A stretch of DNA of 64,000 nucleotides from IMG/VR virus record IMGVR_UViG_3300012352_000310, positions 1 to 64,000 of that record; one strand, written 5' to 3'. Under the pieces are notes generated by a model. The model saw nothing but the letters and a program-made list of their open reading frames with translations, was not told where the DNA came from and did not search any database. This DNA is from a virus. Taxonomy: Duplodnaviria; Heunggongvirae; Uroviricota; Caudoviricetes. This document shows, piece by piece, positions 4,855-60,333 of this stretch. Every line of letters starts with the position of its first letter. Within the stretch, counting starts at the first letter, position 1. Position numbers and translations under genes: made by a program.

Positions 4855-4860
4855 ATGTCT

Positions 4861-4937: not shown

Positions 4938-4947
4938 GTAAATTTGT

Positions 4948-37297: not shown

Positions 37298-37543
37298 TTA
37301 ACTGTCACGTCGTATCTTCTGCAACTGTAAATTCAGCACAAAATTCTCTAATACTAACTTAGTTATAGTCGAAAGCATGATCAGTTCTCGATCAGGTCCA
37401 TCTTGTTTATTGAACATTTCAATAACATCCAAAGCTATAAGCTTTACAGCTTCATCTTCAGATATGTTTAGCATTCCCCAGTCTATAGGGTCTTGAGTTT
37501 CTATAACTCCAACTAGCTCAATAATCTGATTTATGTCGATCAT
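37298..37543 (-). CDS. hypothetical protein
   Basis: 81-aa minus ORF. Confidence 0.45.
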   Translation of the reverse strand: MIDINQIIELVGVIETQDPIDWGMLNISEDEAVKLIALDVIEMFNKQDGPDRELIMLSTITKLVLENFVLNLQLQKIRRDS

Positions 37544-38718
37544 TCTTTCTCCAGTATATCAGCAATCATCTCAGCGGTACATGGAGATAGTGTCCAACCT
37601 AAGTGTCCATGTCCTGTGTTTAGATATACTTTCTCTCGCTTGCCTTTGCGAACGATTGGAAGCATTGAAGGAGTCATTGGTCTTAGACCAGCCCAAGGTT
37701 TATAGTCTCGAGTATCGATCTTTGGAAAGTTAGTGTGTACCCAATTCAACAGCGGATCAATGCGATCTTTGCGAATATCTAGATTCCAACCATCCAACTC
37801 TGCCGTGCCTGCAACTCTGAATCTATCTCCAAGAGTCGATGTAACGATCTTAGCTTGATCGTCAAGCATAGATGTAGTTGGAAAGTTCTCTGGATTATCT
37901 CGGATAGTAATTGAATAACCCTTCACAGGGTATACATTGATTGACTCACCAAACATTCTAGCAACACGAGCTGAATCAGATCCAGCACAGATAATGATCT
38001 TGTCGTAGCTATATTCTAGATGTTCTGAGTACGCAGAATCGATTTCAAAACTATAATTAAACACAACACCACGTTCTTCAAGCCAATCTGCTAGTTGGTT
38101 ACAGAACTTATGTATATCACCCATCGCATCTGATTCTGTCCAGATACCGCCGATGATATCTGAAGAGACTTCAAGCTTTGGTTCTAGCTTTTTAATCTCT
38201 TCTGGGGTCACAACCTTACGTTCTAAGTCAGTGTATCGGTATATGCTTTCCATTGCATATAACGCATCTGAATAATAACCTGAATCTTTATAAAAATGTA
38301 GAATACCATTCTTACTTAGATCGAATTGAATTCCGGTTTCGTCTGCAATCTGGTAGTATAACTCGCGAGCAGTCATACCCATAGCGATAGTTTCCCAAGT
38401 GTTGCTACGCTTGTTAAACTCACCTTTATATACTTGATGCATGAAACCAGCAATCCATTTGAGCTTTGCTGGTGATAGGCTTGGTCTGATTAAGAAAGGA
38501 GCATCTGGAGTAAACATCCATTTGATTCCTTTCTTAACATTAGACCAGCTGGTCCATGTTTCAGAATTAGAAACACTTAGTTGGCCGCCATTGGCATAAG
38601 ATGTTTTCATCCCAGCGTATGGCTCTTTATCAAATACTGATACTTGATGGCCTCGTTTTACTAATGAATATGCTGTAGTGATGCCAGTGATGCCAGCACC
38701 TATCACCGCGACTCTCAT
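37540..38718 (-). CDS. FAD-dependent oxidoreductase (DAO family: glycine/D-amino-acid oxidase or MnmC-like)
   Basis: 392 aa; N-terminal Rossmann MRVAVIGAGITGITTAYSL..VFDKE. Confidence 0.7.
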   Translation of the reverse strand: MRVAVIGAGITGITTAYSLVKRGHQVSVFDKEPYAGMKTSYANGGQLSVSNSETWTSWSNVKKGIKWMFTPDAPFLIRPSLSPAKLKWIAGFMHQVYKGEFNKRSNTWETIAMGMTARELYYQIADETGIQFDLSKNGILHFYKDSGYYSDALYAMESIYRYTDLERKVVTPEEIKKLEPKLEVSSDIIGGIWTESDAMGDIHKFCNQLADWLEERGVVFNYSFEIDSAYSEHLEYSYDKIIICAGSDSARVARMFGESINVYPVKGYSITIRDNPENFPTTSMLDDQAKIVTSTLGDRFRVAGTAELDGWNLDIRKDRIDPLLNWVHTNFPKIDTRDYKPWAGLRPMTPSMLPIVRKGKREKVYLNTGHGHLGWTLSPCTAEMIADILEKE

Positions 38719-39707
38719 GCAGCTTTACCCCATACGTCGTTCCATGAACCAGCAGTGGCACCTTTGGCATAGTCTGTAACTCTATTCTCGAAAAAGTTTC
38801 CGTGGATAGGAGCGTTAATCATAGATTCTACCCACGGCAGAGGATTGCGCTTGACTTTGAAGATGCCCTTCATGCCAAGCCCGATCAATCGACGATCAGC
38901 AATGTAACGAATGTACTGTTTTACTTCTTCTTTGGTAAGACCTTGCATCTCGTTGATACCGAACGACAAATCGATGAACTTGTCTTCCAATTCAACCATT
39001 TTCTCAGCGATACTGTAGATGCTTCCTTTAAGTTCGTCGTTCCAGATCTCTGGATTTTCTTTGATGTATGTCTTAAACAAACGCATCATGTTTTCAGCGT
39101 GCTGTGTTTCATCGACGATAGACCAAGTAACGATCTGACCCATGCCTTTCATCTTGCCGTGGCGAGGGAAGTTTAACAGCATAATGAATGAACTGAACAG
39201 TTGCATACCTTCAGTAAAGGCAGAGAATACGGCGATGTGACGAGCTGTATTTTCTTTAGTAGAGTTCTGGTTTGCAATGCCTAAAACATATTCGTGCTTG
39301 TCCTTCATCTCTTGGTATTCCAAGAACTGATTGTACGTAGTCTCTGGCAGACCAAGAGTTTCAATCAGGTGAGAATACGCAGCGATGTGCAATGCTTCAC
39401 GTGCGGCGAAACCAAGCAACATCATACGAATTTCAGGTTGAGGGAAGTATGGCAGATAGTTGTTAACGTAGCCACCAGCAACGTCGATGTCGCCTTGAGT
39501 AAAGAATCTAAAGATGTTAGTCAGGAATTCTTTCTCTTGTGCTGTAAGAGTACGCTTCCATTGCTTTTCATCTTCAAGCATAGGAACTTCGGTATGCAAC
39601 CAATGAGACTGTTCGTGTTTAAGCCACGCATCATATGCCCAAGGATAGTTGAAAGGCTTGAACGACGTGCGTTCATCAGTCATTTTTTGTTCTAGTTTTT
39701 TAATCAT
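38715..39707 (-). CDS. nrdB: ribonucleotide reductase class Ia small subunit
   Basis: 330 aa; ferritin-like di-iron ExxH motifs, radical Tyr region. Confidence 0.85.
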   Translation of the reverse strand: MIKKLEQKMTDERTSFKPFNYPWAYDAWLKHEQSHWLHTEVPMLEDEKQWKRTLTAQEKEFLTNIFRFFTQGDIDVAGGYVNNYLPYFPQPEIRMMLLGFAAREALHIAAYSHLIETLGLPETTYNQFLEYQEMKDKHEYVLGIANQNSTKENTARHIAVFSAFTEGMQLFSSFIMLLNFPRHGKMKGMGQIVTWSIVDETQHAENMMRLFKTYIKENPEIWNDELKGSIYSIAEKMVELEDKFIDLSFGINEMQGLTKEEVKQYIRYIADRRLIGLGMKGIFKVKRNPLPWVESMINAPIHGNFFENRVTDYAKGATAGSWNDVWGKAA

Positions 39708-39904
39708 TTGTCTTCTTCCAATATTAGTTCGATAAAGCCGTCGAAGACTCTCACTCCGACGACATCTTTAAATCCTTCTGCTGGATCATACACGCATACT
39801 CTAATTTTAGCTTTTGATTTTGGTAGTTCTCCACTGTTTTTAGGATAGAGATCTGCCCAATATTTTTTAATCTTTTCAGCAATATCGTATGCGTCCATGA
39901 TCAA
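39704..39904 (-). CDS. hypothetical protein between nrdA and nrdB
   Basis: 66-aa ORF with 4-nt overlaps on both sides. Confidence 0.45.
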   Translation of the reverse strand: MIMDAYDIAEKIKKYWADLYPKNSGELPKSKAKIRVCVYDPAEGFKDVVGVRVFDGFIELILEEDK

Positions 39905-41712
39905 CCTTCACAAGCTAGGCACGCGCCATCATCTGTAGTAAGTGCATTCAAATCGATTTCTTTAATAACTTCACGTTCGATACGCTTAGAAACTTTATCA
40001 GCTTTAGCGATCTTATCTGAACGGCAGTAATACATAGTCTTCAACTTTAACTTCCAAGCCATAAAGTGCACAGCATGGATATACTTAATGTGACTGTCTG
40101 GTCGGAAGAATACATTCAATGATTGAGCTTGATCGATGTACTCTTGACGATCAGCTGCATGTTGAACAACCCAGCGCTGATCAATTTCCATTGAAGTCTT
40201 GAACACATCACGTTGCCAATCATCAAGGAATTCCAAGTGTTGTGCCGAACCATCATTAGCGATAACTGAAGACCAAGTGTCTTCATACCAACCTTCTTTA
40301 TGATTAACAGCTTCAGCTCTGATCAGTGCATCAAGAAATTTATTCTTGTTTAAGTGAGAACCCGATAGAGTGTCTTGGCGATAAGCATTGGCGCGATAAG
40401 GTTCAATGCTAGGGCTAGTATTGCCCATGAGAATGGAAGAAGAAGCATTGGGAGCAATAGCCATGAGATGACTAAAGCGATTGCCAGTGCCTTTAGCATC
40501 TGGTGCTTCACCACGTTCATATCCCAATTCCTTATTAGCGACATCTAGTTTACCTCGAATGTTCTTGAAGATTGATTTATTAAGACCAACAGCCATTGAA
40601 GATTCCCAAGGGATGTTCTTCTTTTGTAGCAGAGCATGGAAGCCAAGGGCACCAATGCCAATTGATCGTTCACGTATTGCGCTGAACTTTGCGCGTTCAA
40701 TGCTGTCTGGGGCATTGTCAATAAAGTATTGAAGAACGTTATCCAACATTTCAGCTACGTCGCGTAAGAACTGTGGATGATCTTTCCATTCATCATAATA
40801 CTCTAGATTCAAAGAACTCAAGCAGCAGACAGCAGTGCGTTGTTCGTTAGTTGGTAGAATGATTTCAGAGCACAGATTAGATTGATGAACCTTCAATCCT
40901 TGGTCTTTTAACCACTGAGGAAGCTTACGATTGGATTCATCGATAAAGTGAATGTATGGCTCGCCTGTTTGCATACGCAGATCAAGAATCTTTTGCCATA
41001 GTTCACGAGCAGATACTACTTCACGAACTTCACCACTGTGCGGATCTTTTAGTTCCCAGCTGTCGTCAGCATGAGCATCGAGCATTGATCGCTCGATGAT
41101 TTCCATAAAGCTATCTGGAATATTGATACCATGATGCAGGTTGAGAGTACGCATATTTTGATCGCCTGTTGGCTTACGCATCTCAAGGAAAATTAGAATA
41201 TCAGGATGACTAATGTCAAGATAAGCAGCATAGCTACCGCGGCGAGTACGGCCTTGGCGGTAAGCAAGAGAAGATGCATCATACATCTTAAGATGTGGCA
41301 TAACGCCGGTAGACTTATCATCAGCAGCACGAATACCAAAACCAATTCCAACACCGCCTCCTAACATTGATAGCCAATTAGTCTCACTTAGGTTCTGCAC
41401 TAGACCTTCTGCAGTATCTTCAATGTAATTGAGGAAACATGAAATAGGCAGACCACGCTTACTGCGGCCAAAAGAAAGAATGGGAGTGCTATAAGAGAGC
41501 CAATGAGTTGAACTGTACTCATATAATCGTTGCGCATGTGCTGGGTTACTCCCGAATTTTGACGACACGAAAGCGAATCGCTCTTGAGGACTAACCTCGT
41601 CATCTTTCATGTAACTTTCTTTTAATCGAATCTTACCCAGTTCGTCGAACAACTCGTCTCTGGCAAGGTTCACTTGGATTCCGTGAACTACATCAGTCAT
41701 ATTATACTCCAT
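39901..41712 (-). CDS. nrdA: ribonucleotide reductase class I large subunit (short form, no ATP cone)
   Basis: 603 aa; active-site NLCSEI, C-terminal Cys pair CLACEG. Confidence 0.85.
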   Translation of the reverse strand: MEYNMTDVVHGIQVNLARDELFDELGKIRLKESYMKDDEVSPQERFAFVSSKFGSNPAHAQRLYEYSSTHWLSYSTPILSFGRSKRGLPISCFLNYIEDTAEGLVQNLSETNWLSMLGGGVGIGFGIRAADDKSTGVMPHLKMYDASSLAYRQGRTRRGSYAAYLDISHPDILIFLEMRKPTGDQNMRTLNLHHGINIPDSFMEIIERSMLDAHADDSWELKDPHSGEVREVVSARELWQKILDLRMQTGEPYIHFIDESNRKLPQWLKDQGLKVHQSNLCSEIILPTNEQRTAVCCLSSLNLEYYDEWKDHPQFLRDVAEMLDNVLQYFIDNAPDSIERAKFSAIRERSIGIGALGFHALLQKKNIPWESSMAVGLNKSIFKNIRGKLDVANKELGYERGEAPDAKGTGNRFSHLMAIAPNASSSILMGNTSPSIEPYRANAYRQDTLSGSHLNKNKFLDALIRAEAVNHKEGWYEDTWSSVIANDGSAQHLEFLDDWQRDVFKTSMEIDQRWVVQHAADRQEYIDQAQSLNVFFRPDSHIKYIHAVHFMAWKLKLKTMYYCRSDKIAKADKVSKRIEREVIKEIDLNALTTDDGACLACEG

Positions 41713-45526: not shown

Positions 45527-46954
45527 TTACTTAGATATTCTATTTAGTAGATCGTGGAAAGTGTACTTCTTAACGTTGCCGCTATTGTCACTACCCTTCT
45601 TAGGGCGACCACGTCCGCGCTTTTCAGCTGGCGCAGCTACCTTTTTCTTTTCGTTGCCTTCACGATCAGTTTCATATTCTGATCCATATGTACCTTTGTG
45701 ACGAACACCAGTTGCAGTCTTAATCACTTCGCCTTCGTCAAGTTCTTCTTCCTCTTTAAGCTTTGGTTTTTGCTTAGCTTTTTCAGCATCGCGTGCTTGT
45801 TTTTCTGCACGCTCTTTAGCAATCATCGCAGCCATAAGGCCAAGTTTATTCTTATCAGATGCTGTCAATTGACGGCCGTGATCATCTGGTACTCTGCCTT
45901 CATCTATTTCGATTACGTCTAGATCTTCATTAAAGCTCTTTTTGCCATCGTCTTCACCATTGTTGAAGTGAATGTCTTTAGAACGCTTGCGACCTAGTTT
46001 ATCTGCTTTCTTATCAGCAGTCTTTTCTAGTTTTTCTTCGCCTTGTTCTTCTTCGTCATCTTCAACTGTAGCTTCAGCAATGTAGCTCATGAAGTTTTTA
46101 TAAGATAACTTAGTATCTTGTGGTACAAAAGATTCTTTGATTGCATCAGGATGATTTTTAGCATGCGCATGGGCAGCACGAGAAGCAGCGTTATCGCCAA
46201 TCTTTTCGTAAGCATCTAGATATGCTTTAGCGCCTTCTGCAGCTGCCGACTTAGTCTTGTAACCATGCTGACCTAAGTACATTGTTGTGCCTTTTGTCTT
46301 ATGCACAACTTTAGGACGATGACCGCCGAATTGGCTTGGTTCAGAAGTAGCACGGTAGTGATCAGCGTTGATAGCTTCTTCTAGTTCAACTTCTTCTTTA
46401 GTAAGATCAGCCTTTACTTTATCGATTCCAGCTTGACGTTTTTCAGCTTTATTAGTCCAGTGATCTTTACGCTTAGTCCAAGCTGGATTGCTTGGATCTT
46501 CAGTTTCGCGCTTTGCATCAAGACTAGCTTGTTTCTTATAATCTTCTGGCTTACGCTTGCCAGTTGTAGCTTTTACAAAATAGCTAAGCTTAGTCTGCTT
46601 TGAGATTTCATCAATCTGTTCTTCGCACAGGTCTTCATATTCAAACTCCACACCTTCTTGATACACGCGATGAACTTCATGGTCACCAGCAGCGTCAGAA
46701 TCAGCCCACTTTTCATAGTGTTGTTGAGATTTGAACTTCTTAACGAAAGGCTTGGACTTCATACCTTTGACGCCTTGCGCAAACACTGGCTTCTTTTCAT
46801 CCATATCTTTTTGATACGCGCCAGCTTCGTCTAGTTCTTCTTCTTTACGAAGTTTCTTGAAGTCGTCAGCGTCTAGTTTACCATTCTTGTTTTTATCAAG
46901 CTTGTGCTGGTTGCCGACTAAGGCTTCGCTAAATTGTTTAAAGTTTATTGACAT
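45527..46954 (-). CDS. highly charged Lys/Glu/Asp-rich repeat protein (paralog of 46970-47896 product)
   Basis: 475 aa; recurring EEVELxE and HKxKGxxxY...AxAY units. Confidence 0.6.
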   Translation of the reverse strand: MSINFKQFSEALVGNQHKLDKNKNGKLDADDFKKLRKEEELDEAGAYQKDMDEKKPVFAQGVKGMKSKPFVKKFKSQQHYEKWADSDAAGDHEVHRVYQEGVEFEYEDLCEEQIDEISKQTKLSYFVKATTGKRKPEDYKKQASLDAKRETEDPSNPAWTKRKDHWTNKAEKRQAGIDKVKADLTKEEVELEEAINADHYRATSEPSQFGGHRPKVVHKTKGTTMYLGQHGYKTKSAAAEGAKAYLDAYEKIGDNAASRAAHAHAKNHPDAIKESFVPQDTKLSYKNFMSYIAEATVEDDEEEQGEEKLEKTADKKADKLGRKRSKDIHFNNGEDDGKKSFNEDLDVIEIDEGRVPDDHGRQLTASDKNKLGLMAAMIAKERAEKQARDAEKAKQKPKLKEEEELDEGEVIKTATGVRHKGTYGSEYETDREGNEKKKVAAPAEKRGRGRPKKGSDNSGNVKKYTFHDLLNRISK

Positions 46955-46969: not shown

Positions 46970-47896
46970 TTAGTTATTTGGCTTATGCTTCATTGCAAGT
47001 TCGTGATGCTCTTCACCCTTTTCAGCATGTCTATCAGCTGTACTATGACGACCCTTTTCGCCGTGCCACTGAGCTAAATTATCGTGGTAGTCGGCCATGT
47101 GTAGGTGGTGAGCAAACATATCACCTTGTTTCTTAGCAGCATCTGCTGAACGCTTGTTCTCTTCAGACTTTGCATAAGCATCGCTTTCTTCAGCCATAAG
47201 TTCTTCAGTCTTCATAGAAGATGCTGGCTGTGGTGAGTGATACTCTGTCTCATGCACTTTGTAACCCTTCTTTTTATAGAAGGCTGATGCCTTGGCATGA
47301 GCTTCGTCTTTGTCTTTAGCCTTGACGATCACACGCTTCATGATCTTTTCTTTGCGTTGTGAAACTGCAGGATGATTAGGATCAGAAACTGTTACAATAA
47401 CTTTGTGTTGATCAGCGCCTTCATTCAGTTCAACTTCTTCACGCATTTGTGAATATTTGTCTAGAAGGTCTTTATGCTTAGCAATATCAGTCGATTTCAA
47501 TGTGTAGCGAGCAGTTTTAGCGTTATCAAGATGCATCTGCTTTTTCTTTTCGTCGCCACGATCATGAGCAGCAATTGCTTTATTCATATGATAGACGAAA
47601 GTACTTTCGTCTAGTTCAACTTCTTCTGAGACGTATGAACGATGCACAGATACTTGTTTGTCTGGATATTTCTTTGAGACTGCAGCATGAGCTTTTGATG
47701 CTTCGCCATGTGAACCAAAAGTCTTCCAAGGGCGTCCGTTAATATAGACTTTGTGAACTTCACGAGACTTAGACTTGCCATAACCTTCGTCATTAGCGCC
47801 ACCGTCTGCATGCCATGCTGCAGAACGATTCTTACCCATATAGAAAGCTTCTTTAACGCTTTCGTCCATTCCTTCGAATTCTAGAAAACTCTTCAT
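46970..47896 (-). CDS. highly charged repeat protein (paralog)
   Basis: 308 aa; shares EVHKVY, EEVELDE/EEVELNE, KKKGYKVHE units with neighbour. Confidence 0.6.
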   Translation of the reverse strand: MKSFLEFEGMDESVKEAFYMGKNRSAAWHADGGANDEGYGKSKSREVHKVYINGRPWKTFGSHGEASKAHAAVSKKYPDKQVSVHRSYVSEEVELDESTFVYHMNKAIAAHDRGDEKKKQMHLDNAKTARYTLKSTDIAKHKDLLDKYSQMREEVELNEGADQHKVIVTVSDPNHPAVSQRKEKIMKRVIVKAKDKDEAHAKASAFYKKKGYKVHETEYHSPQPASSMKTEELMAEESDAYAKSEENKRSADAAKKQGDMFAHHLHMADYHDNLAQWHGEKGRHSTADRHAEKGEEHHELAMKHKPNN

Positions 47897-47897: not shown

Positions 47898-48344
47898 TCA
47901 TTCTCCAGATTTCAAGTGCGATCTTAGCATCCATGCTTGCTTAGCAAATTCATCTAGTAAGCCGGCAGCAAAATCTGCAAGACCTTGATTGTTTGCAGCG
48001 TCTGCATCTGCAAAGAGTTTATTTAGGTTGGCAGTGATCTGAGCATTGCAATCTAATAGATTCATAACCATTGCTTGGAAAGACTCTGGCTTGACAGTAT
48101 CTTCTTGAATAGTCTTGGATGGATATAGATCTTCTAGACTGATTGGAGCATAAGATCCAAGTGCACGCATTTGTTCTGCGATTGCGTCAATCTTTCCGTA
48201 GAATTGTTCGTATACGTCACCAAAGTACGCGTGGTCTTGAGCAAAGTTACGGCCTTCAATGTTCCAATGGTATGACTGCGCCTTAAAGTAAGACACAAAC
48301 ATATTAGCAAGAAGCTGCTTAAGTGTTGCTGATAGTGGGTTCAT
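47898..48344 (-). CDS. Dps-family ferritin-like protein
   Basis: 148 aa; SYHWNIEGRNFAQDHAYFGDVYEQFYGKIDAIAEQMRALG matches Dps ferroxidase-site pattern. Confidence 0.75.
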   Translation of the reverse strand: MNPLSATLKQLLANMFVSYFKAQSYHWNIEGRNFAQDHAYFGDVYEQFYGKIDAIAEQMRALGSYAPISLEDLYPSKTIQEDTVKPESFQAMVMNLLDCNAQITANLNKLFADADAANNQGLADFAAGLLDEFAKQAWMLRSHLKSGE

Positions 48345-48353
48345 GGGGTTTCC

Positions 48354-51077
48354 TTATTTTGTATAGCTCTTGTGTGCTAGACGATCGTTTTCAATCTTAC
48401 GCACTCTTGGAGCCATCTTCATAGCTAATCTATTTATGACAGCTTTACGACGCTGAATGATTCGTTCAATACGTTCTTTTTCTGCAACAGATAGTTTGTC
48501 TAATGGTTTCTTAGCTATGCGCTGCTTCATAGATTGAATAGCTAAGCGACGGGCGCGTTTATTTATGGTAGCTGTGCTGGAACGTGATTTCAATGCGATC
48601 TTAATCTTACGTTCACGCTTAGATTGAGTACGAGCAAATCTAACTTTAGCTCTCATACGTTCCATACGAGATAGAACTTCGTTCAATACTTCTTCAGCTA
48701 TATCTTCGATGTGTTCGCCTGTCTCGTCATCAACAAGAGCTAGTTCATCATCTTCATAAGCATCTAGAATATCGTCTTCATCTTCTAGATCACTAACGAT
48801 CTTATCCATCTCGTCGTCAGTTAGATCTAATTCGTCGCCAAGATCTTCTACTTCTTCTGAAGTCTTAGTTAATCCAAGTGTTAGATCGTCTTCGTCATCA
48901 GGAATATCTTCTTCAGTTCCTTCTTTTAGACGTTCTTTTTCTGACTGTTGCTTTGTTGCTAATGATGCTTTTTCTTGAGCATGCTTAACTTGAAGTTGAG
49001 CTGCTTCATGTTTTTTCTTAGCTGCTTCAACAGGATCGGCTTCTTCAGTTCTATATGCAACCTTCATTCTACGAAGGTGATGGTTATCTTCTGGAGATAC
49101 CATTGCATGACCAACTTGGTTTGGTTCTTGAACGATAGTGTCACTATCAGATTCATCGTCTTTTACGCTACGAACTTTAGACAACTGCTTCTGCAATACA
49201 GAAGTATCTTTACCAAGTGTTTTAGCTGTAGCGATTTCTTCTAGAATCTTAGAGATTTCTTCTTTAACATGCTTCTTAAGGTCGTTAGCAAACTGCTTAT
49301 TAGTTGCTTTCATAATACCAGAAAAACGCTTGTTGCCTTTCTTGAAGTCACCGGCTTTGTCTGCAGCAGATGCATCATCAGAAGCAGCTTTCTTGTAACG
49401 ACTTAACAGATCGGTAGAAAGTTCGTTAACAACTTCTTCATGAGCTAGTTTTCTCATTCCAGGATCAATGCTGCCATTATTATCGTAGCGATGCTGTACA
49501 CCTTTTTTACCAGATTTTTGTAAATCTTTCATAGCCTTGTCGGCGTCTGCATAGTTTTTGTGGGTGCTTGTCTTAATCCAATCGCCACGTGAATTACGAT
49601 AACCTACGTGAATGGTTTCTTCAGATACTTTCTGTGGTACTAACTTATCATCGTACTTAATTTCTGCTTCTTTAGCAGTCTGTAGCATCTTATGAAGCAC
49701 TTCAACATACTCAGGACGCATAGGTTTGCTGCGTACTTTACGTAGAGCATTGTTGATTAGTTGTTCTGGATTGGAAGACTTTTCTACGTCTTCAAGGCCT
49801 AGTGCCGAAGCAATGACACGCGCGACTTTGATCTTATCTGTAGCGTTGAATTTCATTTCTATTAGTTGTCCTTCTAGTTCTACTGAATCTGCAAATTCCG
49901 CGCCCTGAGTCTCAGGAGTGAAATTGTTCTCCATGTCTTGGATTTCGTGTTCATGAGTATGCCAATAGTCAAAGTGGTGCATGAACTCTCCAATACGATT
50001 TAGAGAATCTCTAGCCTTATCATGTGCGTCATGCCATGCCGCCAATTCGGCAGCTTCAGGTACCTTGTCCTGTTGCAAATGCGAATCGTTGATTTTCATG
50101 TAAGTGTCGGTCGACTTAAGTGCGTTTAGGATCGCGACAGCGTCCTTAATTTGTCCAGCGTTATAACGTTGGATTGTAGTTTGAAAGGCTTTAGTGGCAT
50201 CAGCTGAATGATGAAGATTCTTTGTCTTGTAACCCTTAAACGATATTTCTTCTGGCGCTTGACCAGTTGGGATGTCTTCCGCGATGAACGTCGGCTGAAC
50301 TGAATCTAACCACTTTTTACTGATGTCGCCAGATTCATTGACTACAGTTACGTAGTTAGCACCTCTATCGACAACCTCATACACTGACTCACCATCGGTG
50401 ACTTTGTCACCAACATTAAAAATCTCTCCTGCATGATACTTCTCACGAAGTTCGTTGCGCTCAAACTTAACTTGCTCTTTGATAACATCCATTCCCAAGC
50501 CTTGACGAATTTCATTCATCAAGCGCTTACCATCGATGTCTGTTAGGGTATGTGGAAGACCCTTCTTGAATAACTGATAGTCACCCTTCTTTGCGGCTTC
50601 ACGCATCTTAGTGCCAGACATACCGGCTGCGTTGTCAGCATCTGGATCGCGTTCACCAGCAGAAACAACTTCAATAGTTTCGAAGTTGAATGCATCAGTG
50701 CCGTTATACTTCTCTAAAATTCTCTTATACTCAGGAACACGATCGGAACCAGCGAGCATGACAAGATGCTTGTACTTCTTTGACAAAGCACCAGCAGCTT
50801 CAATGAATGTTCTGATTTGTTCGTTTGCCGCGACGAAGTTCGTCTTCGGAAACATTTTCTTAAGATAGTAGACTTTACGATCTACTTGGAGAGGATTAGA
50901 CTTTTTGTCTTGAGTGCGCGAAGCAAAGATGATATGGTCGGCTTTTTGTTTGCCGGCAATCTTTTTGACTGCGTTGACCAATAGCTCGTGACCATTTGTA
51001 GGCGGTTGGAATCTACCAAACGCCATGACGACCTTCTTAGAAGGCAGTTCTTGTACTAACTGTCTGTATGCTTTCAT
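48354..51077 (-). CDS. large late protein: N-terminal NMNAT/cytidylyltransferase-like domain fused to ~730-aa charged coiled-coil region
   Basis: 907 aa; MAFGRFQPPTNGH (HxGH-type) and MSGTKMREA (ISST-like) motifs in first 170 aa; late promoter 30 nt upstream. Confidence 0.7.
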   Translation of the reverse strand: MKAYRQLVQELPSKKVVMAFGRFQPPTNGHELLVNAVKKIAGKQKADHIIFASRTQDKKSNPLQVDRKVYYLKKMFPKTNFVAANEQIRTFIEAAGALSKKYKHLVMLAGSDRVPEYKRILEKYNGTDAFNFETIEVVSAGERDPDADNAAGMSGTKMREAAKKGDYQLFKKGLPHTLTDIDGKRLMNEIRQGLGMDVIKEQVKFERNELREKYHAGEIFNVGDKVTDGESVYEVVDRGANYVTVVNESGDISKKWLDSVQPTFIAEDIPTGQAPEEISFKGYKTKNLHHSADATKAFQTTIQRYNAGQIKDAVAILNALKSTDTYMKINDSHLQQDKVPEAAELAAWHDAHDKARDSLNRIGEFMHHFDYWHTHEHEIQDMENNFTPETQGAEFADSVELEGQLIEMKFNATDKIKVARVIASALGLEDVEKSSNPEQLINNALRKVRSKPMRPEYVEVLHKMLQTAKEAEIKYDDKLVPQKVSEETIHVGYRNSRGDWIKTSTHKNYADADKAMKDLQKSGKKGVQHRYDNNGSIDPGMRKLAHEEVVNELSTDLLSRYKKAASDDASAADKAGDFKKGNKRFSGIMKATNKQFANDLKKHVKEEISKILEEIATAKTLGKDTSVLQKQLSKVRSVKDDESDSDTIVQEPNQVGHAMVSPEDNHHLRRMKVAYRTEEADPVEAAKKKHEAAQLQVKHAQEKASLATKQQSEKERLKEGTEEDIPDDEDDLTLGLTKTSEEVEDLGDELDLTDDEMDKIVSDLEDEDDILDAYEDDELALVDDETGEHIEDIAEEVLNEVLSRMERMRAKVRFARTQSKRERKIKIALKSRSSTATINKRARRLAIQSMKQRIAKKPLDKLSVAEKERIERIIQRRKAVINRLAMKMAPRVRKIENDRLAHKSYTK

Positions 51078-51107
51078 TTAATCCATCTATGTTAAAGTAT
51101 ATCAATT

Positions 51108-51115
51108 ATTTATAT
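51108..51115 (-). promoter_or_regulatory. T4-type late promoter TATAAATA
   Basis: plus TATTTATA = minus TATAAATA, 30 nt upstream of 907-aa gene ATG. Confidence 0.6.
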
Positions 51116-53328: not shown

Positions 53329-53775
53329 TTAGTTACACCAACTTGTTTTTGCTTCGCCGTAATATTCTCTAGCATATCCATTTGCAATAAGCATTTGACG
53401 TAAGCTTTGACCATCTAGAATAACGTCGCCAAGAACTCGGCCACCATACTTATCCCAGTCCATTAGAATAATCTGACGATTTGTAGAAGCGCTTATCGCT
53501 TTCTTGGTGAACTCTGTCGCAGCCAATCCACGTTGAGCTTCTGATTCGCACTTAGCGCGAAACCCTTTTTCTGGAGTGTCAACACCGAATACTCGAATGC
53601 TCAACTCTTTCTTTAGAGGATCAGGCAACCAAGTTGCTTGAAATGCTACAGTGTCGCCGTCAATAACACGGGTCAACGTTGCTTTATATATCACGCCTTC
53701 TTTTTGCTTTTGTGCAAAGGCAGGAGCTGCTAGTAATGCTCCTGCTATAAACGCTGTTAGTAGTTTCTTAATCAT
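53329..53775 (-). CDS. secreted staphylococcal-nuclease (SNase/thermonuclease) homolog
   Basis: 148 aa; signal peptide; VIDGDT and GVDTPE catalytic motifs. Confidence 0.75.
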   Translation of the reverse strand: MIKKLLTAFIAGALLAAPAFAQKQKEGVIYKATLTRVIDGDTVAFQATWLPDPLKKELSIRVFGVDTPEKGFRAKCESEAQRGLAATEFTKKAISASTNRQIILMDWDKYGGRVLGDVILDGQSLRQMLIANGYAREYYGEAKTSWCN

Positions 53776-53776: not shown

Positions 53777-55150
53777 TTAGCAATTCCACTTTTTCAATGC
53801 CAATGCTTTACGTGTAGGACGACCTTTGTCGTCTTTCATAGGTCCTTTAACACCGCCCATGCGAGCACAGAAAGATTTTCTACGCTTAGCAGCTTTACTA
53901 TCTGGGTCTAGTTTAGACGGAGGTGTAGTTACTGGAGCTTGTAAGTTACCACCCTTAGCATTGTAAGCATCACGGCCCTTTTGTGTTAGACCACCAGTTG
54001 AACTCTTATGTCCTTTAGCGTCAATAGCATACTCCAACAATTCTTCGTCGGTAATAGCTTCTAACTTTTCCCACAACGATTCAGAATCTACGTTATTGCT
54101 AATTGCTAACTCTTCAACTACTTCTTCAATTAGATTAAACTGTTCTTCTAGTTCTTCTCTAGACTGTAGATAATCTCTAACTGAACTTATGTAGTCTTGT
54201 GCCAAAGTAATTTTAGATTGAACCCACTCAGGCATGTTTTCTTCATCGGAAAGCATGTCAACTAGATCTTTCGAATTACGCAGGATCGTTTGTAGTTGTG
54301 TTCTGGCCATTTGACCTTCGTAGTCGTATTCACCGCTGTCAATAGCTTTAACTGCTTCTGCGATAGGGTGAAGCATATAATCTACGTCTTCTGCTACGCA
54401 GTTAGGCACCATCTTGTTGCCTTTCTTTTTTACGCCGACTTGTTTATAGCCGACCCAGCATGCTTCTAGAATTTCTTCATCCATACTTTCGCCATACATC
54501 GCTTGATATTTCAACGTATGCTTGCTTGGCTTAGTTTTAGCAGTAGCATCTCCTGGTGCTGGCTCGTAAGCAGAAGGATCACTGTCGCTTTTCTTATCCA
54601 TCTTTTTCCAGTGAGCTACTCTAGCTTTAGCTGTAGAATCACTAAGGCCTTTGTGATAAGCCTTATTGTCTAATCTTGAGTCTTCAGCAACGAAGGATTC
54701 GCCAAACTCATGCCCAGCAACTCGTTTCATTTGTGTGTTGAATTCGCTTTGAGATGGTTTTTCTTTGTAAAGCTTGATAGAGATCTCAGGTCTTTCTTTT
54801 CCTTTGATTCTCCAGTTGTAGCCTTTTTCTTTATGCTCAGGCTTAGTAGTCTTTACAACTCTTCGCTTGTAGCCAGCTTCCCACGATTCCGATTCATCTA
54901 AGTCTTCACGAAGATCTTTGTCAGCACCGTGGTACGTACCTTTGCCTTTGGTAATGTACGAATTGACACGAGCCATTCCCCATTGCTGTGGAGTAGTTCC
55001 TGGACGATGACCAGAATTCCAAGCTGCAACGCCGCGCTTGTAAACTTTACGAAGTATGCTTATTGATACTCCAGATTTTTCTGCTTTTGCAGCCAAACCA
55101 GCTTCTGCGGTTTCGCAGATTGGCTCTACATAGTTCTTAAATGTGATCAT
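53777..55150 (-). CDS. hypothetical protein with conserved N-terminal domain (RGVAAWNSGHRPG..QWGMARVNS)
   Basis: 457-aa ORF, basic C-terminus. Confidence 0.55.
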   Translation of the reverse strand: MITFKNYVEPICETAEAGLAAKAEKSGVSISILRKVYKRGVAAWNSGHRPGTTPQQWGMARVNSYITKGKGTYHGADKDLREDLDESESWEAGYKRRVVKTTKPEHKEKGYNWRIKGKERPEISIKLYKEKPSQSEFNTQMKRVAGHEFGESFVAEDSRLDNKAYHKGLSDSTAKARVAHWKKMDKKSDSDPSAYEPAPGDATAKTKPSKHTLKYQAMYGESMDEEILEACWVGYKQVGVKKKGNKMVPNCVAEDVDYMLHPIAEAVKAIDSGEYDYEGQMARTQLQTILRNSKDLVDMLSDEENMPEWVQSKITLAQDYISSVRDYLQSREELEEQFNLIEEVVEELAISNNVDSESLWEKLEAITDEELLEYAIDAKGHKSSTGGLTQKGRDAYNAKGGNLQAPVTTPPSKLDPDSKAAKRRKSFCARMGGVKGPMKDDKGRPTRKALALKKWNC

Positions 55151-55176: not shown

Positions 55177-56406
55177 TTATCGTTGCCATCCTTTTAAGAT
55201 GTCTGCTGAGAAGTTTGCTTTACTGAATTCCATACGGTCTACGATCTTCACAGCGCCACCCGATAGGTGATCAATAGCAACGAAACCTTCAACACCGGTT
55301 GTTCTAAAACCGGTCGTGGTTTTTAAGAAAGTCTTGATATGTCCTGCTTCGTTCATCTTTGCGATAATCATCTGCTTAGCATCTACAATCAAGTTTGATA
55401 GATCAAAGATCTTTGCGATTTCTTCCTTTGGATGCTCAGCAAAGAACTTCATCACGCTTTTGCGTTTTTCTTCCCACTGAGCTTTAGACTTATCAGTCTT
55501 TTTGGAATCAATCTCTTTTTGATACTTATCGTAGATATAATTGAACAAACCTTCTACGTGAGCTTTAGTATTGGTGATCTTTTCACCAGCACGAACTTTA
55601 GAGTTGTTGTAAGTCTTTACAGCCATCAACAGATCAGCGTCTTTACTGATATAGTCAATAGTACGGCCGTTCACTTGAGTGAATAGCTTTCCGGCTTCAG
55701 ATAAGATAGCAGTGATCTTTTCTGTTTCTGATGCAGTGAATGTTGCAGTACCAGAATAGTCTTTATAGTTTGCATCGTCCATCCAAATAGTGGAGACGTC
55801 TTTGAATTTGTCAGTAATTGTCTTACCGAAAGATGCTTTCATCGTTTCGAAAGAATCACCAGTGTATGTTGTGTGCCATACAACACCAATCTTTGCAGAG
55901 CGAATCTTTTTGCCTAAGTCAGAATCGTAAGGCACAGCATAAAGAATAGTGTTTGGATGGAAGGTGATAAATTTTTCACCGTCAATCGTCTCAGTCTTCT
56001 TATCGTCAGTGAACATAAGGTCACCTTGATAAACTCCAGACTTAATACCAAGCTTAGAGAATTCTGATAGAGCGATCTTTAACTTTGCTGCTAGATCACC
56101 AGAAGTATCTGCATCAACTTCGGCTGCAGTCTTATATACTTTAGGCTCTTTATTGAAGACACCTTTTTTCGCAACGAAAAACTTACCGTCTCGTGGATCA
56201 ACACCAGCAAAAATGGCTGGAGCTCCGTCCCATTTGACCGTTGCAGTCAGTTTGCCTTTGCTGTTACCGGCAAGCATGTCACGAAGATCGCGCAAAAAGT
56301 TTATGGCTTTGCGCATTCCATCGACACCCTCGTTGAAGACAAGATCCTCAACGTGCTCCATGTGTGTGTTCTTATCTTCAGTGATAAAGTCTTTTAGTCT
56401 AAGCAT
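55177..56406 (-). CDS. ATP-dependent ligase-superfamily nucleotidyltransferase (RNA ligase-like)
   Basis: 409 aa; motif I KWDG, III IDGEKF, IV EGFVAI, V VKIVD in correct order. Confidence 0.55.
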   Translation of the reverse strand: MLRLKDFITEDKNTHMEHVEDLVFNEGVDGMRKAINFLRDLRDMLAGNSKGKLTATVKWDGAPAIFAGVDPRDGKFFVAKKGVFNKEPKVYKTAAEVDADTSGDLAAKLKIALSEFSKLGIKSGVYQGDLMFTDDKKTETIDGEKFITFHPNTILYAVPYDSDLGKKIRSAKIGVVWHTTYTGDSFETMKASFGKTITDKFKDVSTIWMDDANYKDYSGTATFTASETEKITAILSEAGKLFTQVNGRTIDYISKDADLLMAVKTYNNSKVRAGEKITNTKAHVEGLFNYIYDKYQKEIDSKKTDKSKAQWEEKRKSVMKFFAEHPKEEIAKIFDLSNLIVDAKQMIIAKMNEAGHIKTFLKTTTGFRTTGVEGFVAIDHLSGGAVKIVDRMEFSKANFSADILKGWQR

Positions 56407-56446: not shown

Positions 56447-57349
56447 TTACTTATTCTTGACTTCTGTCTTGAAAGTTCGGCCACCCATTGGATATATTGA
56501 AGCACGAGCGCCTTTAAGGCCCAATTGTGTTCTATCGCCTTTGTAGATAACAGCCAACACTGGCTCAAATCCACCGATGATTTTATCTGGCAAATAGTGT
56601 ATGTGACCCGTTGCAGTTAACTGAAAATCGCCAGTCGACATCTGCTTAAGTCCTGGATCACCTTGAATGAGAACGTCAACACGGTTTACGTCTAAACTTG
56701 CTTTATCGAAATTCACGCCGTATACTGACATCATCTTAAGCTTGTTGTCTTTGATCTTCATGTAAGCAGATTGACTGCTTGGCATAACACCGCCAGGATA
56801 CAACAGATTGACTTGTTGTTCAAAGTACTTTACTTCTGGATGATTTGCAATCTCTTTTTCAGTGATACCACCCCACTGTTGAAAGTCTTTTGGTGTGGAT
56901 CCCTTCTTATGAGAGATATGACAAACAGCTTTTCCACTTTCATCTACTAGGTGAAAGTCAGATTTTGGAGTGCCAGCAGTCTTTTCAACACCAACTATAT
57001 TCTTAACAGTGCGGCTCTTAAGCTTAACATTTATTGGACCGCCGTTAAGAATAACTGCTTGAATAACAGCTTCTTCCAACATAGCAATAGCTGCTGATTC
57101 TACATCAAGACCACCAGTACGCCCTGATGCTTTGATAGTGATCTTAACATTGCCAACTACGATACCACCGATAGAAGAACCTTTTAGATTTCTGTCTACA
57201 ACAGCGCCAAGATTAGATAACATCTCTGCGAGCTCGAGCATCTTCTTTACTCGATCACCATCGACTAATACTACTATGCTTGTGCGGGTCTTACTCTTTA
57301 GAGTATAGCCTTTAGTGGCTAAGTAATCCGCTAATTGCATTCCATCCAT
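56447..57349 (-). CDS. hypothetical protein (late)
   Basis: 300 aa; ATGA overlap with upstream late gene. Confidence 0.55.
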   Translation of the reverse strand: MDGMQLADYLATKGYTLKSKTRTSIVVLVDGDRVKKMLELAEMLSNLGAVVDRNLKGSSIGGIVVGNVKITIKASGRTGGLDVESAAIAMLEEAVIQAVILNGGPINVKLKSRTVKNIVGVEKTAGTPKSDFHLVDESGKAVCHISHKKGSTPKDFQQWGGITEKEIANHPEVKYFEQQVNLLYPGGVMPSSQSAYMKIKDNKLKMMSVYGVNFDKASLDVNRVDVLIQGDPGLKQMSTGDFQLTATGHIHYLPDKIIGGFEPVLAVIYKGDRTQLGLKGARASIYPMGGRTFKTEVKNK

Positions 57350-58269
57350 TACTCAGCAGAGCCTTTTAGAGATGTTGCAATTGGAGTGCTTTCTGGCTTT
57401 AGACGGTGTCTTAAGAAAGTCTTGCCGTTATGCTTAAATTCAATTGAGTTGTTGCCAGACTTATGAACTGTGATATTCTTTGGATCATTTAAGATATGAT
57501 CGTGAGATGTTGCCGAATGTTCAGTGTCTACACTGTGGTCGTCTCCGCTTCCACCAGTTGTAGTCTTGTACAATGGAAGCTTAGTTTCATGAGCATGCAA
57601 TAGATTGTTTCTGATATGATCGCTTAATGCTTTTGGATGCATTTGAGAAAGTGAGTGGTGCCACTCATCGCGAATCTTACCTATAGCAGCATTGGATAGT
57701 TTTTCAGCAGTTTCACGGAACTTAGGATTGTCTTTAATGGCTTGCTTCATTTCAACCTTAGACATTCCTTGAAGCTCTTTATGCTTCTTGATCATCTCTT
57801 CGCGTGCATCATCATAGTGCTTAACTGCATTAGTTCCAAGTTGTTGGTCTGTTTGCTTTGCACCAGGATTTCCGACAGGAACTTTACCATTCTTTTTCTT
57901 GGTGACTTTTAAAGAGATACCAACGTGAGCTCCATTCTTGTGTCGCAAGATAATGTCAGCAGAGTTCTGTTGCTGTGTCTCTTCTACACCAGTAATTCTA
58001 CCTATGTCTCCTGGCTTAGAAGACCAGTGAGCAGAAGCAATACCGTCACCAAACTTTTGGCGTAGATGGTCTGCTGTGCCTTTTGCCATTTTAACGTGGT
58101 CTTTGTACTCTTCTGGAGTCATGCGCTTTTTTATCTCATCGTGAGTGCGCTCTGCCTCTGGAGACATATGCTTACCGTGGTTTAGTTCTTTACCGGTAAG
58201 AATTTCGTGGATAACACCTTTATCGTTAGACGATACGGCTTCCGTTAAAAATGAGATAAAAGTTTTCAT
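57349..58269 (-). CDS. hypothetical His-rich protein (late)
   Basis: 306 aa; late promoter 30 nt upstream. Confidence 0.55.
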   Translation of the reverse strand: MKTFISFLTEAVSSNDKGVIHEILTGKELNHGKHMSPEAERTHDEIKKRMTPEEYKDHVKMAKGTADHLRQKFGDGIASAHWSSKPGDIGRITGVEETQQQNSADIILRHKNGAHVGISLKVTKKKNGKVPVGNPGAKQTDQQLGTNAVKHYDDAREEMIKKHKELQGMSKVEMKQAIKDNPKFRETAEKLSNAAIGKIRDEWHHSLSQMHPKALSDHIRNNLLHAHETKLPLYKTTTGGSGDDHSVDTEHSATSHDHILNDPKNITVHKSGNNSIEFKHNGKTFLRHRLKPESTPIATSLKGSAE

Positions 58270-58298: not shown

Positions 58299-58306
58299 TA
58301 TTTATA
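58299..58306 (-). promoter_or_regulatory. T4-type late promoter TATAAATA
   Basis: plus TATTTATA; sits between terminator hairpin and gene start. Confidence 0.6.
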
Positions 58307-58334: not shown

Positions 58335-59561
58335 TTAGATGAACTCTTCTAGTGAAGTTCTGGGAGCTGTATCCCTTATTTCGTAAGTCTTGTTTCCATT
58401 ATATTGGTAGATAAGATCTCCATTTAGCCAATCTCTCTTACCATCCAAGGCGTCTTTGATCTCGTTTGCCATATCGCTAGCAGTGGTAACTGGAACGTTT
58501 TGACACACATGATTCAAGTTACGGCTAGGATTGAGCAACTCGAAGTCATATGGAAGTCCCATTAAACTCATTGCTTCTCGATACGTTATATAACGATCTT
58601 CATCGGGGTGCGTGAGGTTGGTTGGTAAGTGTCCGACGAAGGCTCCAATGTAATTAGCTGGAATAACAGAAGACCTACGCATAATATTACCACCAGCAGC
58701 CAACTTTGTAGCAATAGCTTCACACTTTGTAGCAACTTTTGGATAATCATTCGCTTCCATCCACTTCTTTACTTGCCAGTAATCAGTTTTAGATTCAATC
58801 CAGTCCATAGCGTCTACGGACTTGGTCAATTTTTTCACAAACTCTTGATGAGTGATTCCACCTTCTAATTCTTCTAGAACATATCGATAGTAAGGATCAT
58901 CTTTAGACGGGATCTTCTTATTCGTGACTTCATGCTGTGTTAGATCTTTTGGTATCTCACGGATAGCATCTTCGATTCGTTTGTTCGCACGATCAAAGTA
59001 GTTGAACAAAGGCACTTGGTTGCCTTTCCAAAAGAAGTAGAATGAACGTTCACGAACTTGGCTCAATCCATGCAGAAGAGACTTTGTACGATAGATCGAC
59101 ATAGTGTAACCCTGTGCTGAAGCAATTACACGAAGTTTATCTACAATAGGCTTACCCATTTCGCCTGCGAATCGAGGAGCATTCTCTCCCCAAAAGACTT
59201 TCGGTTTCATCTCTTCTAAAACATACTTCGCCGTAGTTGTCATCCAATCGTTCACAGCTGCTTCAGAATTTGCAGAAGTAGAAAGAGAAGAAAGACCAGC
59301 ACATGGGCAAGTTGCACCAACAACATCGACATAATGAGGATGGCGTCCACCTTGGTCTAGAAGAATGTATGGAACGTCTTTATAGTAGTTGACTAAGTGT
59401 GAGTCGTTACTAGAGAATGGCGAATACGACAAAAGGTAGTCTGGACGACTACCAAATGCTTTTTCTTGACCGAGTGGAAGTCCCCCAATTAGAGGGACAA
59501 TTGCTGCATGTTTAAACAAAGAAAGACTCCAAAGTATCAGTTGGCTTTTGAGATGATTCAT
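58335..59561 (-). CDS. DNA C5-cytosine methyltransferase-family protein (divergent)
   Basis: 408 aa; GATCPCAGLS (motif IV PC), GENAPRF (motif VI ENV-like), QVRER (VIII), REAMSLMGLPYDF (motif X). Confidence 0.6.
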   Translation of the reverse strand: MNHLKSQLILWSLSLFKHAAIVPLIGGLPLGQEKAFGSRPDYLLSYSPFSSNDSHLVNYYKDVPYILLDQGGRHPHYVDVVGATCPCAGLSSLSTSANSEAAVNDWMTTTAKYVLEEMKPKVFWGENAPRFAGEMGKPIVDKLRVIASAQGYTMSIYRTKSLLHGLSQVRERSFYFFWKGNQVPLFNYFDRANKRIEDAIREIPKDLTQHEVTNKKIPSKDDPYYRYVLEELEGGITHQEFVKKLTKSVDAMDWIESKTDYWQVKKWMEANDYPKVATKCEAIATKLAAGGNIMRRSSVIPANYIGAFVGHLPTNLTHPDEDRYITYREAMSLMGLPYDFELLNPSRNLNHVCQNVPVTTASDMANEIKDALDGKRDWLNGDLIYQYNGNKTYEIRDTAPRTSLEEFI

Positions 59562-60333
59562 ATGCTTTCTTATGCTGAATCACCGTTCCATATTTAGTCA
59601 ACCCTTTCCAAGGGCCGCTTGGTACTTTCTTCTCAGTTAGCTTGATAAAGTTAGGCCACAGATCAGCCAACTTCTTTTGAGCTTCGTTATGCACTTCAAT
59701 AGTGCGCCAAGTAGAACATCCACCAGCAGCGTTAGTCTCAGAACAGGTTACCATGTATTTAGCGCTGATACGATTCTTAAATCCACGAGTCAGCAATTGT
59801 AGATTCACATCAAAGTCTTCTGCTGCAGCAACACGATTCCATTCGATGTCCGTTGGAATACGAGGGCCATCATAGAAAACGTTTGTCATGATACGTTGGC
59901 ATTCACGTACTGGCCATTGCTTAACATCTGGAATAACCCAAGCAGGCAGCAATCCACCGTAAGCAATACCTTCGTCCATCCAAGTATCGCACAGACCAAA
60001 TGCATCGTCAAAGTCTTGATCACTGAACTTTCGGCTCAACCACTTAGTGCCTTCACCGGGATTCGGTTCTTTTACTACGAAGTCAAGATCATCGTCAAAC
60101 ACAAAATGCCTAGAATCGCGAAACCGATTGAAGATCCATTCTCGAGTAGGCGCAATGCGATTGATTTCTGCAGGAAGTCGTAGTACTTTTCCTGGATAGC
60201 GTTTTTCCATTTCGTCATATTCATGCTCCTGTACGACAAAGGTTGTAATATTCTTGTACTTTTCTGGCAAGTTACCATACGTGACTTGTTTGTCCATACG
60301 TCCAAGAGTCGGGATTACGATGTGTTGAATCAT
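59512..60333 (-). CDS. GT-A-like glycosyltransferase candidate
   Basis: 273 aa; N-terminal VIPTLGR (GT2-like) and FDDDLDF DxD motif. Confidence 0.45.
   Translation of the reverse strand: MIQHIVIPTLGRMDKQVTYGNLPEKYKNITTFVVQEHEYDEMEKRYPGKVLRLPAEINRIAPTREWIFNRFRDSRHFVFDDDLDFVVKEPNPGEGTKWLSRKFSDQDFDDAFGLCDTWMDEGIAYGGLLPAWVIPDVKQWPVRECQRIMTNVFYDGPRIPTDIEWNRVAAAEDFDVNLQLLTRGFKNRISAKYMVTCSETNAAGGCSTWRTIEVHNEAQKKLADLWPNFIKLTEKKVPSGPWKGLTKYGTVIQHKKAYESSQKPTDTLESFFV

Follow-up and report, generated by a model that had tools for sequence, protein, structure and literature searches.

The stretch of DNA analyzed here comprises 64,000 nucleotides (positions 1 to 64,000 of the IMG/VR virus record IMGVR_UViG_3300012352_000310; hereafter the window) and contains, on its minus strand, an ATG-started open reading frame (ORF) of 148 codons plus a TGA stop (47898..48344, stop included), which an initial annotation had described as a phage-encoded Dps. 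The phage is T4-like, with T4-type genes that lie nearly all on the minus strand, and it encodes NrdA and NrdB, a ThyX-like protein, DNA ligase, primase, and exonuclease. The best protein matches around the Dps gene are to cyanomyoviruses, the pelagimyophage HTVC008M, and the Methylophilales phage Melnitz. A megablast comparison of the 40–60 kb part of the window with 50,697 phage records returned no match, which indicated that a close cultured relative is absent and that no annotation could be transferred. On the same strand, the Dps gene is preceded by a gene for a 907-residue protein (48354..51077) and followed by genes for proteins of 308 (46970..47896) and 475 residues (45527..46954).

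Sequence and structure comparisons were used to assign the family. The Pfam search proposed in the initial annotation was positive, with the ORF scoring 76.9 bits for PF00210 (cut-off, 24.5; E = 1.9e-21), and the protein also matched phrog_3636 in PHROGs (E = 5e-32). The 60 entries returned by a sequence search of the PDB are without exception of the Dps type or chimeras that were engineered on a Dps scaffold, the top matches being Helicobacter cinaedi CAIP (5lbh; E = 2.6e-15), Pseudomonas aeruginosa Dps (8ff9), and Bacillus subtilis MrgA (2chp). An AlphaFold2 model of the monomer, built from 49 homologues, has a mean predicted local distance difference test score of 95.9 and features a four-helix bundle (A, residues 3–28; B, 34–61; C, 89–116; D, 120–142) with a short BC helix (70–76) and no fifth (E) helix. 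The best 50 Foldseek matches of this model in the PDB are exclusively Dps, with template modeling (TM) scores of 0.89–0.93. A maxi-ferritin or bacterioferritin identity was rejected, as the structural neighbors are all Dps and the fifth helix is absent. Family membership and fold are established directly by these data: the ORF encodes a genuine Dps-type mini-ferritin by sequence, fold, and metal ligands, far beyond chance, and in a T4-like phage window the designation as a phage-encoded Dps is borne out.

The ferroxidase site was examined in an alignment of the window Dps with 23 homologues and with Escherichia coli and Listeria innocua Dps, the reference sequences being identical to those of PDB entries 1f30/1dps and 1qgh, respectively. 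His26, Trp27, His38, Asp53, and Glu57 align to E. coli His51, Trp52, His63, Asp78, and Glu82, and to L. innocua His31, Trp32, His43, Asp58, and Glu62. In the minus-strand coding sequence, the ferroxidase ligand His26 and the adjacent conserved Trp27 are encoded at 48264..48269, the ligand His38 at 48231..48233, and the segment Asp53–Glu57 (D-A-I-A-E), which corresponds to the ligands contributed by the two-fold-related subunit, at 48174..48188. The initial annotation had suggested looking for lost ferroxidase ligands by careful alignment; the four metal ligands and Trp27 are all retained and are invariant across 92 viral homologues. Because overall identity in this set is 37–76%, the invariance, which the alignments establish directly, points to purifying selection on the ferroxidase site. 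The Dps motif that had been called intact is present with respect to every named residue (His26, Trp27, Asn28, Gly31, Phe34, His38, Phe41, Tyr45, Asp53, Ala56, Glu57, Arg60, and Gly63), although the string as typed fails to match because it places two residues too many between His38 and Asp53. Once this distance is set right, the pattern HWN..G..F...H..F...Y.......D..AE..R..G covers residues 26–63.

One position within this motif does depart from the canonical site. The acidic residue that is expected four positions past the second histidine, at the position of E. coli Asp67 and L. innocua Asp47 (low-affinity site and nucleation), is replaced by Gly42 (codon at 48219..48221, minus strand), so that the description of the motif as intact does not extend to this residue. 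Glycine is also the prevalent residue here among the 92 viral homologues (Gly in 67, Ala in 7, Ser in 6, Glu in 5, Gln in 4, Asp in 2, and Arg in 1). In E. coli Dps, His51, His63, and Glu82 form the high-affinity iron site, Lys48, Asp67, and Asp78 form a weaker second site, and Glu64 and Asp67 are nucleation residues (PMC6150300). The equivalents of Lys48, Glu64, and Asp67 in the window Dps are Gln23, Ala39, and Gly42. As judged from the aligned ligands, the catalytic high-affinity site is intact, and the chemistry of the second site and of nucleation probably differs in detail because the Asp67 position is glycine in the viral clade. CAIP, a solved Dps that is also tail-less, carries glutamine at the Gly42 position in the PDB alignment; a non-acidic residue is therefore tolerated here, which argues for natural variation rather than decay.

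DNA condensation, one of the roles considered in the initial annotation, is poorly supported by the protein itself. Dps proteins bind DNA through a positively charged mobile N-terminus or, in Helicobacter pylori HP-NAP, through a positive surface that acts at acidic pH, and the short N-termini of L. innocua Dps and of the Bacillus anthracis proteins Dlp-1 and Dlp-2 are accompanied by a lack of DNA binding (PMC1874666). In the model of the window Dps, only two residues lie ahead of helix A and six beyond helix D, so that the absence of a Lys-rich tail at either end is directly apparent; the Lys-rich N-terminal tail of E. coli Dps (approximately 20 residues), which mediates DNA binding and condensation, has no counterpart. 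An N-terminal extension is likewise absent in 88 of the 92 viral homologues. The protein contains 11 Lys and Arg against 18 Asp and Glu residues, thus a net charge of −7, whereas HP-NAP has a positive surface; its isoelectric point (pI) of 4.83 is close to that of the non-binding L. innocua Dps (4.87). An E. coli-like Dps that physically coats phage or host DNA could be argued for from the public annotation of homologues as "DNA-binding protein" and from the genes for basic or AT-hook-bearing proteins that adjoin the Dps gene. Given that tail-less Dps proteins without a positive surface do not bind DNA (PMC1874666), and that the window Dps lacks a basic tail and is acidic, we consider this explanation very unlikely.

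The genes around the Dps ORF are tightly packed. The stop codon of the 907-residue gene lies 9 nt before the Dps ATG, a Shine–Dalgarno-like AAGGA (48351..48355, minus strand) ends 6 nt before this ATG and overlaps the upstream TAA stop, and a single base separates the Dps TGA from the next ATG. This operon structure is read directly from the sequence and implies co-transcription and coupled translation. The 907-residue protein starts with MKAYRQLVQE and carries a cytidylyltransferase-like domain at its N-terminal end (phrog_3041, 2.5e-72), followed by an acidic central part and a C-terminus that is basic. The 308-residue protein downstream is charged, has no family match, begins with MKSFLEFEGMDE, and contains the linkers EEVELDE and EEVELNE. 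The 475-residue protein that follows has an N-terminal EF-hand-like loop (DKNKNGKLDADDF), related linkers (EEVELEE and EEEELDE), and an AT-hook-like RGRGRPKK near its C-terminus; its N-terminal module is encoded immediately behind Dps in a large number of related loci, and in others it is fused ahead of Dps. The Dps gene run further encodes an Ig-like head protein (phrog_613) and a structural protein of the virion (phrog_1645).

A T4-type late-promoter consensus, TATAAATA, occurs on the minus strand at 51107..51114, 29 nt upstream of the ATG of the 907-residue gene, and is the probable promoter of the Dps-containing operon. Exact matches are found at three places in the window, the other two being 58299..58306, approximately 30 nt before the start of a 306-residue gene at 58269, and 5683..5690, ahead of a tRNA block. 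This number is not above chance, and the argument lies in position and strand: all three matches are intergenic and on the gene strand, a placement that suggests real late promoters. The same element precedes genes of the homologous cluster in HTVC008M, and in two related loci it is located 28 nt before the Dps ATG itself.

Taken together, the protein is probably a tail-less, acidic mini-ferritin of an uncultured marine T4-like myophage that oxidizes Fe2+ at intersubunit sites, stores the product, and protects DNA chemically, and that is made late along with head-associated genes. We infer that the protein is a dodecamer and catalytically active, as well as when it is expressed and which physiological role it has, the biochemical steps being those known for the family. 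Twelve subunits would form a hollow cage, as suggested by the family, the fold, and interface ligands that make sense only in a dimer. At each two-fold interface, one subunit would contribute His26 and His38 to the ferroxidase sites and its partner Asp53 and Glu57, with Trp27 adjoining. Fe2+ would be oxidized at the twelve intersubunit sites, with H2O2 as the preferred oxidant, and the product would be stored as a ferric mineral; oxidation of iron by H2O2 would clear both Fenton reagents together. Protection is thus proposed to be chemical, through removal of iron and peroxide, rather than physical coating or condensation of DNA, because the protein is acidic and devoid of a basic tail. Co-transcription from the T4-type late promoter with head-associated genes would place the action of the protein most likely in the late phase of infection, in which phage DNA is being concentrated and packaged. 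Among the roles offered by the initial annotation, iron sequestration and protection from peroxide fit the conserved ferroxidase site, whereas DNA condensation is poorly supported and a link to an FAD oxidase (see below) does not hold up.

The closest parallels are L. innocua Dps (Fri; 1qgh) and other tail-less proteins such as Dlp-1/2 of B. anthracis and Brevibacillus brevis Dps (1n1q), which share the fold of the window Dps (TM approximately 0.9). L. innocua Dps is similar in length (156 residues against 148), in its short N-terminus, and in pI, and L. innocua-type proteins use the same intersubunit His-His/Asp-Glu ligands with a neighboring tryptophan. Owing to these matches, the phage protein would be expected to behave like L. 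innocua Dps and to oxidize and store iron without binding DNA (PMC1874666). The two types differ in sequence (approximately 21–28% identity), in the replacement of Asp47 by Gly42, in one pore position, and in setting, since L. innocua-type Dps belongs to a stress regulon and the window Dps to a phage late operon.

Several observations weigh against this assignment of function. Gly42 and Ala39 remove two carboxylates that are tied to the second iron site and to nucleation (PMC6150300), and mineralization could, as far as can be judged from the residues present, be impaired or different. Scores against the NCBIfam Dps equivalog models are far below their cut-offs (NF006975, 42.9 against 114 bits; NF041388, 42.8 against 170; NF052461, 37.9 against 300), so that the window Dps is not an orthologue of any characterized Dps. 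Of three acidic positions that we take to line the pore of L. innocua Dps, two are acidic here (Asp115 and Asp124) and the third is Gln120. Of 88 related loci, 55 lack an exact TATAAATA element ahead of Dps in the DNA that was retrieved for each; because this arrangement is not general, late expression is proposed for the window and its near relatives only.

The initial annotation had also placed an oxidase dependent on flavin adenine dinucleotide (FAD) next to the Dps gene as a source of H2O2. The Dps gene is in fact flanked by the genes for the 907-residue cytidylyltransferase-like fusion protein and the 308-residue charged protein, and no flavoenzyme was detected among the flanking genes using Pfam, PHROGs, or NCBIfam. 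The sole FAD-dependent oxidoreductase in the window, a member of the DAO family (37540..38718; PF01266, E = 1.7e-61), is encoded between SHMT and NrdB, 9.2 kb and 13 ORFs away from Dps in a separate gene group. If it acted as an oxidase this enzyme would yield H2O2, and Dps could then serve as a dedicated scavenger; many DAO-family enzymes, however, are dehydrogenases rather than oxidases. In the 88 related loci, some of which extend beyond NrdB, the DNA up to 10 kb from Dps yielded no homologue of DAO or SHMT. A dedicated scavenging role is accordingly highly improbable, and the adjacency from which it had been derived does not exist. The DAO gene is more likely to be part of a base and SHMT metabolism. 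Modified DNA bases are suggested by genes of the window whose predicted products are a protein like C5-cytosine methylases, a TET-associated glycosyltransferase (PF20691), dCMP deaminase, and, beside the ThyX-like protein, a ThyA-like enzyme; together with the SHMT and DAO genes, this set occupies 58335..59561, 59512..60333, 61218..61778, 61645..62367, 36126..37274, and 37540..38718.

A different use of the stored iron is conceivable. The cage could hold iron from degraded host proteins and supply it to phage iron enzymes, such as the di-iron NrdB subunit of class Ia ribonucleotide reductase (RNR), which would be relevant in iron-poor seawater and is compatible with the mini-ferritin function proposed above. 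NrdB (38715..39707; PF00268, E = 2.7e-75) and NrdA (39901..41712) are encoded on the Dps strand, NrdB 9 kb downstream of Dps, and among the related loci NrdA is found in 21 and NrdB in 11, at 6–9 kb downstream. In the cultured phages 7-11 and LAh_8, Dps is located within a nucleotide-metabolism module beside ThyX or anaerobic RNR genes. The RNR linkage in the T4-like phages nevertheless reflects regional synteny of the genome segment and is not specific to Dps, and 15 loci in which Dps lies between the terminase genes (see below) have no RNR nearby. RNR is moreover needed early or in the middle of infection, as opposed to the late-type promoter of the Dps operon, and a partner for iron release is not evident. 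An iron reservoir or chaperone is thus possible but rather doubtful as the main function.

The conserved neighborhoods of Dps, which were established directly by a census of the 80 best IMG/VR loci, fall in large part into two arrangements. Approximately 55 of the 80 have a co-oriented cluster of the window type, in the order DUF6267, cytidylyltransferase-like protein, DUF6321-ending protein, Dps, protein with an EF-hand-like start, Ig-like head protein, and DUF7207, with NrdA/NrdB further on. In another 15, Dps lies exactly between terS and terL with gaps of 0–35 nt, in the run gp13, gp14, gp15, gp16, Dps, gp17, gp18 of a T4-like gp13–gp19 module (loci L048, L053, L056, L057, L062, L066, L070, L072, L074, L080, L086, L087, L089, L091, and L092). 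Placement of Dps between the terminase genes, as well as the virion structural and Ig-like head proteins encoded in the gene run of the window, raises the question of whether Dps belongs to a cluster of capsid-targeted internal proteins and acts in or at the prohead, where it could shield packaged DNA from iron or travel with the virion. Neighborhoods in the hyperplastic regions of T4-like genomes can, however, mirror insertion hot spots rather than function. The L-x-E at residues 4–6 of the terS/terL-type Dps proteins (METLIE...) was not used as a protease site, as it lies inside helix A.

Fusion proteins bear on the same question. Searching 1.84 billion representatives with a profile yielded 10,184 Dps-family matches, and many of the best 150 are long proteins; the fusions relied on here are called proteins without internal stops. 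In P0099, P0145, and P0190 (locus L099), a head-maturation protease domain (phrog_18402, approximately 1e-57; phrog_859, approximately 1e-97) is followed directly by Dps, and three Dps-fold entries in BFVD are likewise named "Prohead protease" (A0A6J7XDU5, A0A6J7WPK9, and A0A6J7WIS1). These fusions end in a C-terminal "ALPDGSFPI..." segment. Pfam detected no protease domain in 45 long Dps-containing proteins, and PHROGs detected one in three of them; a literature search for prohead protease together with Dps found no paper naming both. A second type of fusion (P0062 to P0076, 257–801 residues) consists of charged modules joined by EE[VA]EQ[IM]DE linkers, which are followed by an EF-hand-like module and, last, by Dps. 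One of these modular proteins, P0071, which was recovered from two independent contigs, occupies the window-type slot of a T4-like genome, with DNA polymerase, UvsX, gp41 helicase, and DUF6267 as neighbors. An L-x-E with a variable middle residue directly precedes the fused Dps domain and is conserved. The T4 prohead protease gp21 cuts after Glu in ITE and LTE motifs (PMC5694885). The motif [LIM]xE is found before the fused Dps in 26 of 40 cases against a background of 32%, a count that includes several related sequences and is weakened by this. A 514-residue "cytidylyltransferase–Dps fusion" in L046 and several other long ORFs were dropped as artefacts on account of an internal stop. In P0050 (777 residues), a tandem pair of Dps domains precedes a long tail of low complexity.

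Further evidence for a link to the head comes from the N-termini of the neighbors. The capsid-targeting sequence of T4 internal proteins is MKTYQEFIAE (PMC8442874). In the window, the 306-residue protein (57349..58269) starts with MKTFISFLTE, which resembles this sequence as does the start of the 907-residue protein, and homologues in related loci start with MKTLKSFIAEEK, MKSLKQFIAEEK, and MKTLKDFIAEQK. The pattern ^MK[TSA][FYL]..[FYL][ILVM].E is found at 31 of 1397 ORF N-termini and at 1 of 8525 internal methionines, an enrichment of approximately 190-fold, and 29 of the 31 matches belong to families that occur near Dps, namely DUF6267, the cytidylyltransferase-like proteins, DUF6321, and p306. 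The observation covers the genes at 57349..58269, 48354..51077, 46970..47896, 53777..55150, 55177..56406, and 45527..46954 of the window and loci L013–L092. On the strength of their N-termini, these neighbors may represent a gene cluster for internal proteins that marine T4-like phages package into the capsid. They share with T4 IPI–III and Alt the MK(T/S)(F/L)xx(F/Y)(I/L)xE-type start and a position behind late promoters, but they are large enzymes or modular proteins instead of small internal proteins, and the likeness is one of sequence. A literature search on capsid-targeting sequences in cyanophages returned nothing useful.

The window Dps itself starts with MNPLSATLKQ and thus has neither a capsid-targeting motif nor an extension, and no Glu occurs before residue 30. 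In addition, a 12-mer of approximately 200 kDa could not exit through the tail tube. A head-associated Dps is therefore unlikely in the window phage, even when the targeting-like neighbors, the terminase placement, and both types of fusion are taken into account. A broader proposal would be that Dps of T4-like and other tailed phages is linked to head morphogenesis instead of being a generic stress gene, keeps redox-active iron off packaged DNA at or inside the capsid, and forms a phage counterpart of ferritin-loaded encapsulins, with the window Dps as the unfused version; we regard this as improbable as well. In encapsulins, a ferritin-superfamily protein is held as cargo inside an HK97-fold shell, although the classical cargos are not Dps dodecamers. 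The likeness would apply only if Dps were head-associated, in which case the prohead protease–Dps fusions would place it in the shell; the window Dps has no targeting peptide or fusion. If the pattern does reflect function, iron and peroxide chemistry would be a constraint on DNA packaging or virion stability, and a natural example of a ferritin-like protein tied to a viral capsid would be at hand. In aquatic T4-like phages, Dps is conserved with an intact catalytic site, DNA-binding tails are generally absent, the contexts are late and of the head or packaging type, and some lineages carry protease fusions.

Dps genes in phages are already known and widespread, and the protein of the window, as a tail-less mini-ferritin, is an uncharacterized further member. 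A tblastn search found Dps genes in 27 phage records, which encode proteins 24–33% identical to the window Dps and are mostly annotated as DNA-binding or Dps; these include 7-11, GAP52, SE131, the Aeromonas LAh phages, Synechococcus phages S-SRM01 and S-EIVl, and a Bacteroides phage. Dps has been reported in the "Gratiaviridae" and in 36 other gut phage genomes by Benler et al. in 2021 (PMC8008677), who cite Kyrkou et al. (2019; PMC6669764) for Dps of Lactobacillus phages. Earlier examples thus span phiEco32-like phages, 7-11/GAP52, Aeromonas LAh phages, Synechococcus S-SRM01 and S-EIVl, Lactobacillus plantarum myophages, and the gut "Gratiaviridae", all of them tailed phages with Dps-family genes to which a protective role against radicals of oxygen and against iron was ascribed (PMC8008677, PMC6669764). 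The Dps genes of 7-11 and LAh_8 are located in a replication and nucleotide module and encode Asp at the Gly42 position, whereas in the clade of the window the gene belongs to a late cluster that is associated with the head in marine T4-like phages.

A protein identical to the window Dps is listed in NCBI, JGI, ENA, and Logan, with the name "starvation-inducible DNA-binding protein" at JGI. Approximately 40 metagenomic clusters that are 50–76% identical to it occupy the same genomic slot, and its nearest cellular relatives are 32–36% identical and have a Bacteroidota-like context. A pattern scan of IMG/VR identified at least 596 viral loci with Dps. The bare statement that a phage carries Dps therefore adds little, given annotations in cultured phages, at least two papers, and hundreds of viral contigs; what is new here is the genomic context, namely the late-promoter operon, the neighbors with capsid-targeting-like N-termini, the placement between terS and terL, and the fusions to a prohead protease or to modular proteins of the head cluster.

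A few other features of the window were recorded. The late gene run that includes Dps also encodes a staphylococcal-nuclease homologue (53329..53775; PF00565, 1.9e-10) with a signal-peptide-like N-terminus. The 907-residue gene carries a second, divergent cytidylyltransferase-like domain of the window, beside that of a fusion of nicotinamide mononucleotide adenylyltransferase with Nudix; a literature search on "cytitidyltransferase" returned nothing useful. This fusion and NAMPT form an NAD salvage pair (NAMPT, 15382..16779; fusion, 16840..17814). The tRNA block that follows the TATAAATA site at 5683..5690 comprises 30 genes (57..5025, minus strand), with duplicates that include Asp, Ile-GAT, Phe, Glu, Tyr, and Met. 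Two neighboring ORFs of 65 residues (27117..27314 and 27375..27572) are identical in their first 24 residues (MTKIEAIKEHIALREQFWKPYSKL), which looks like a tandem duplication.

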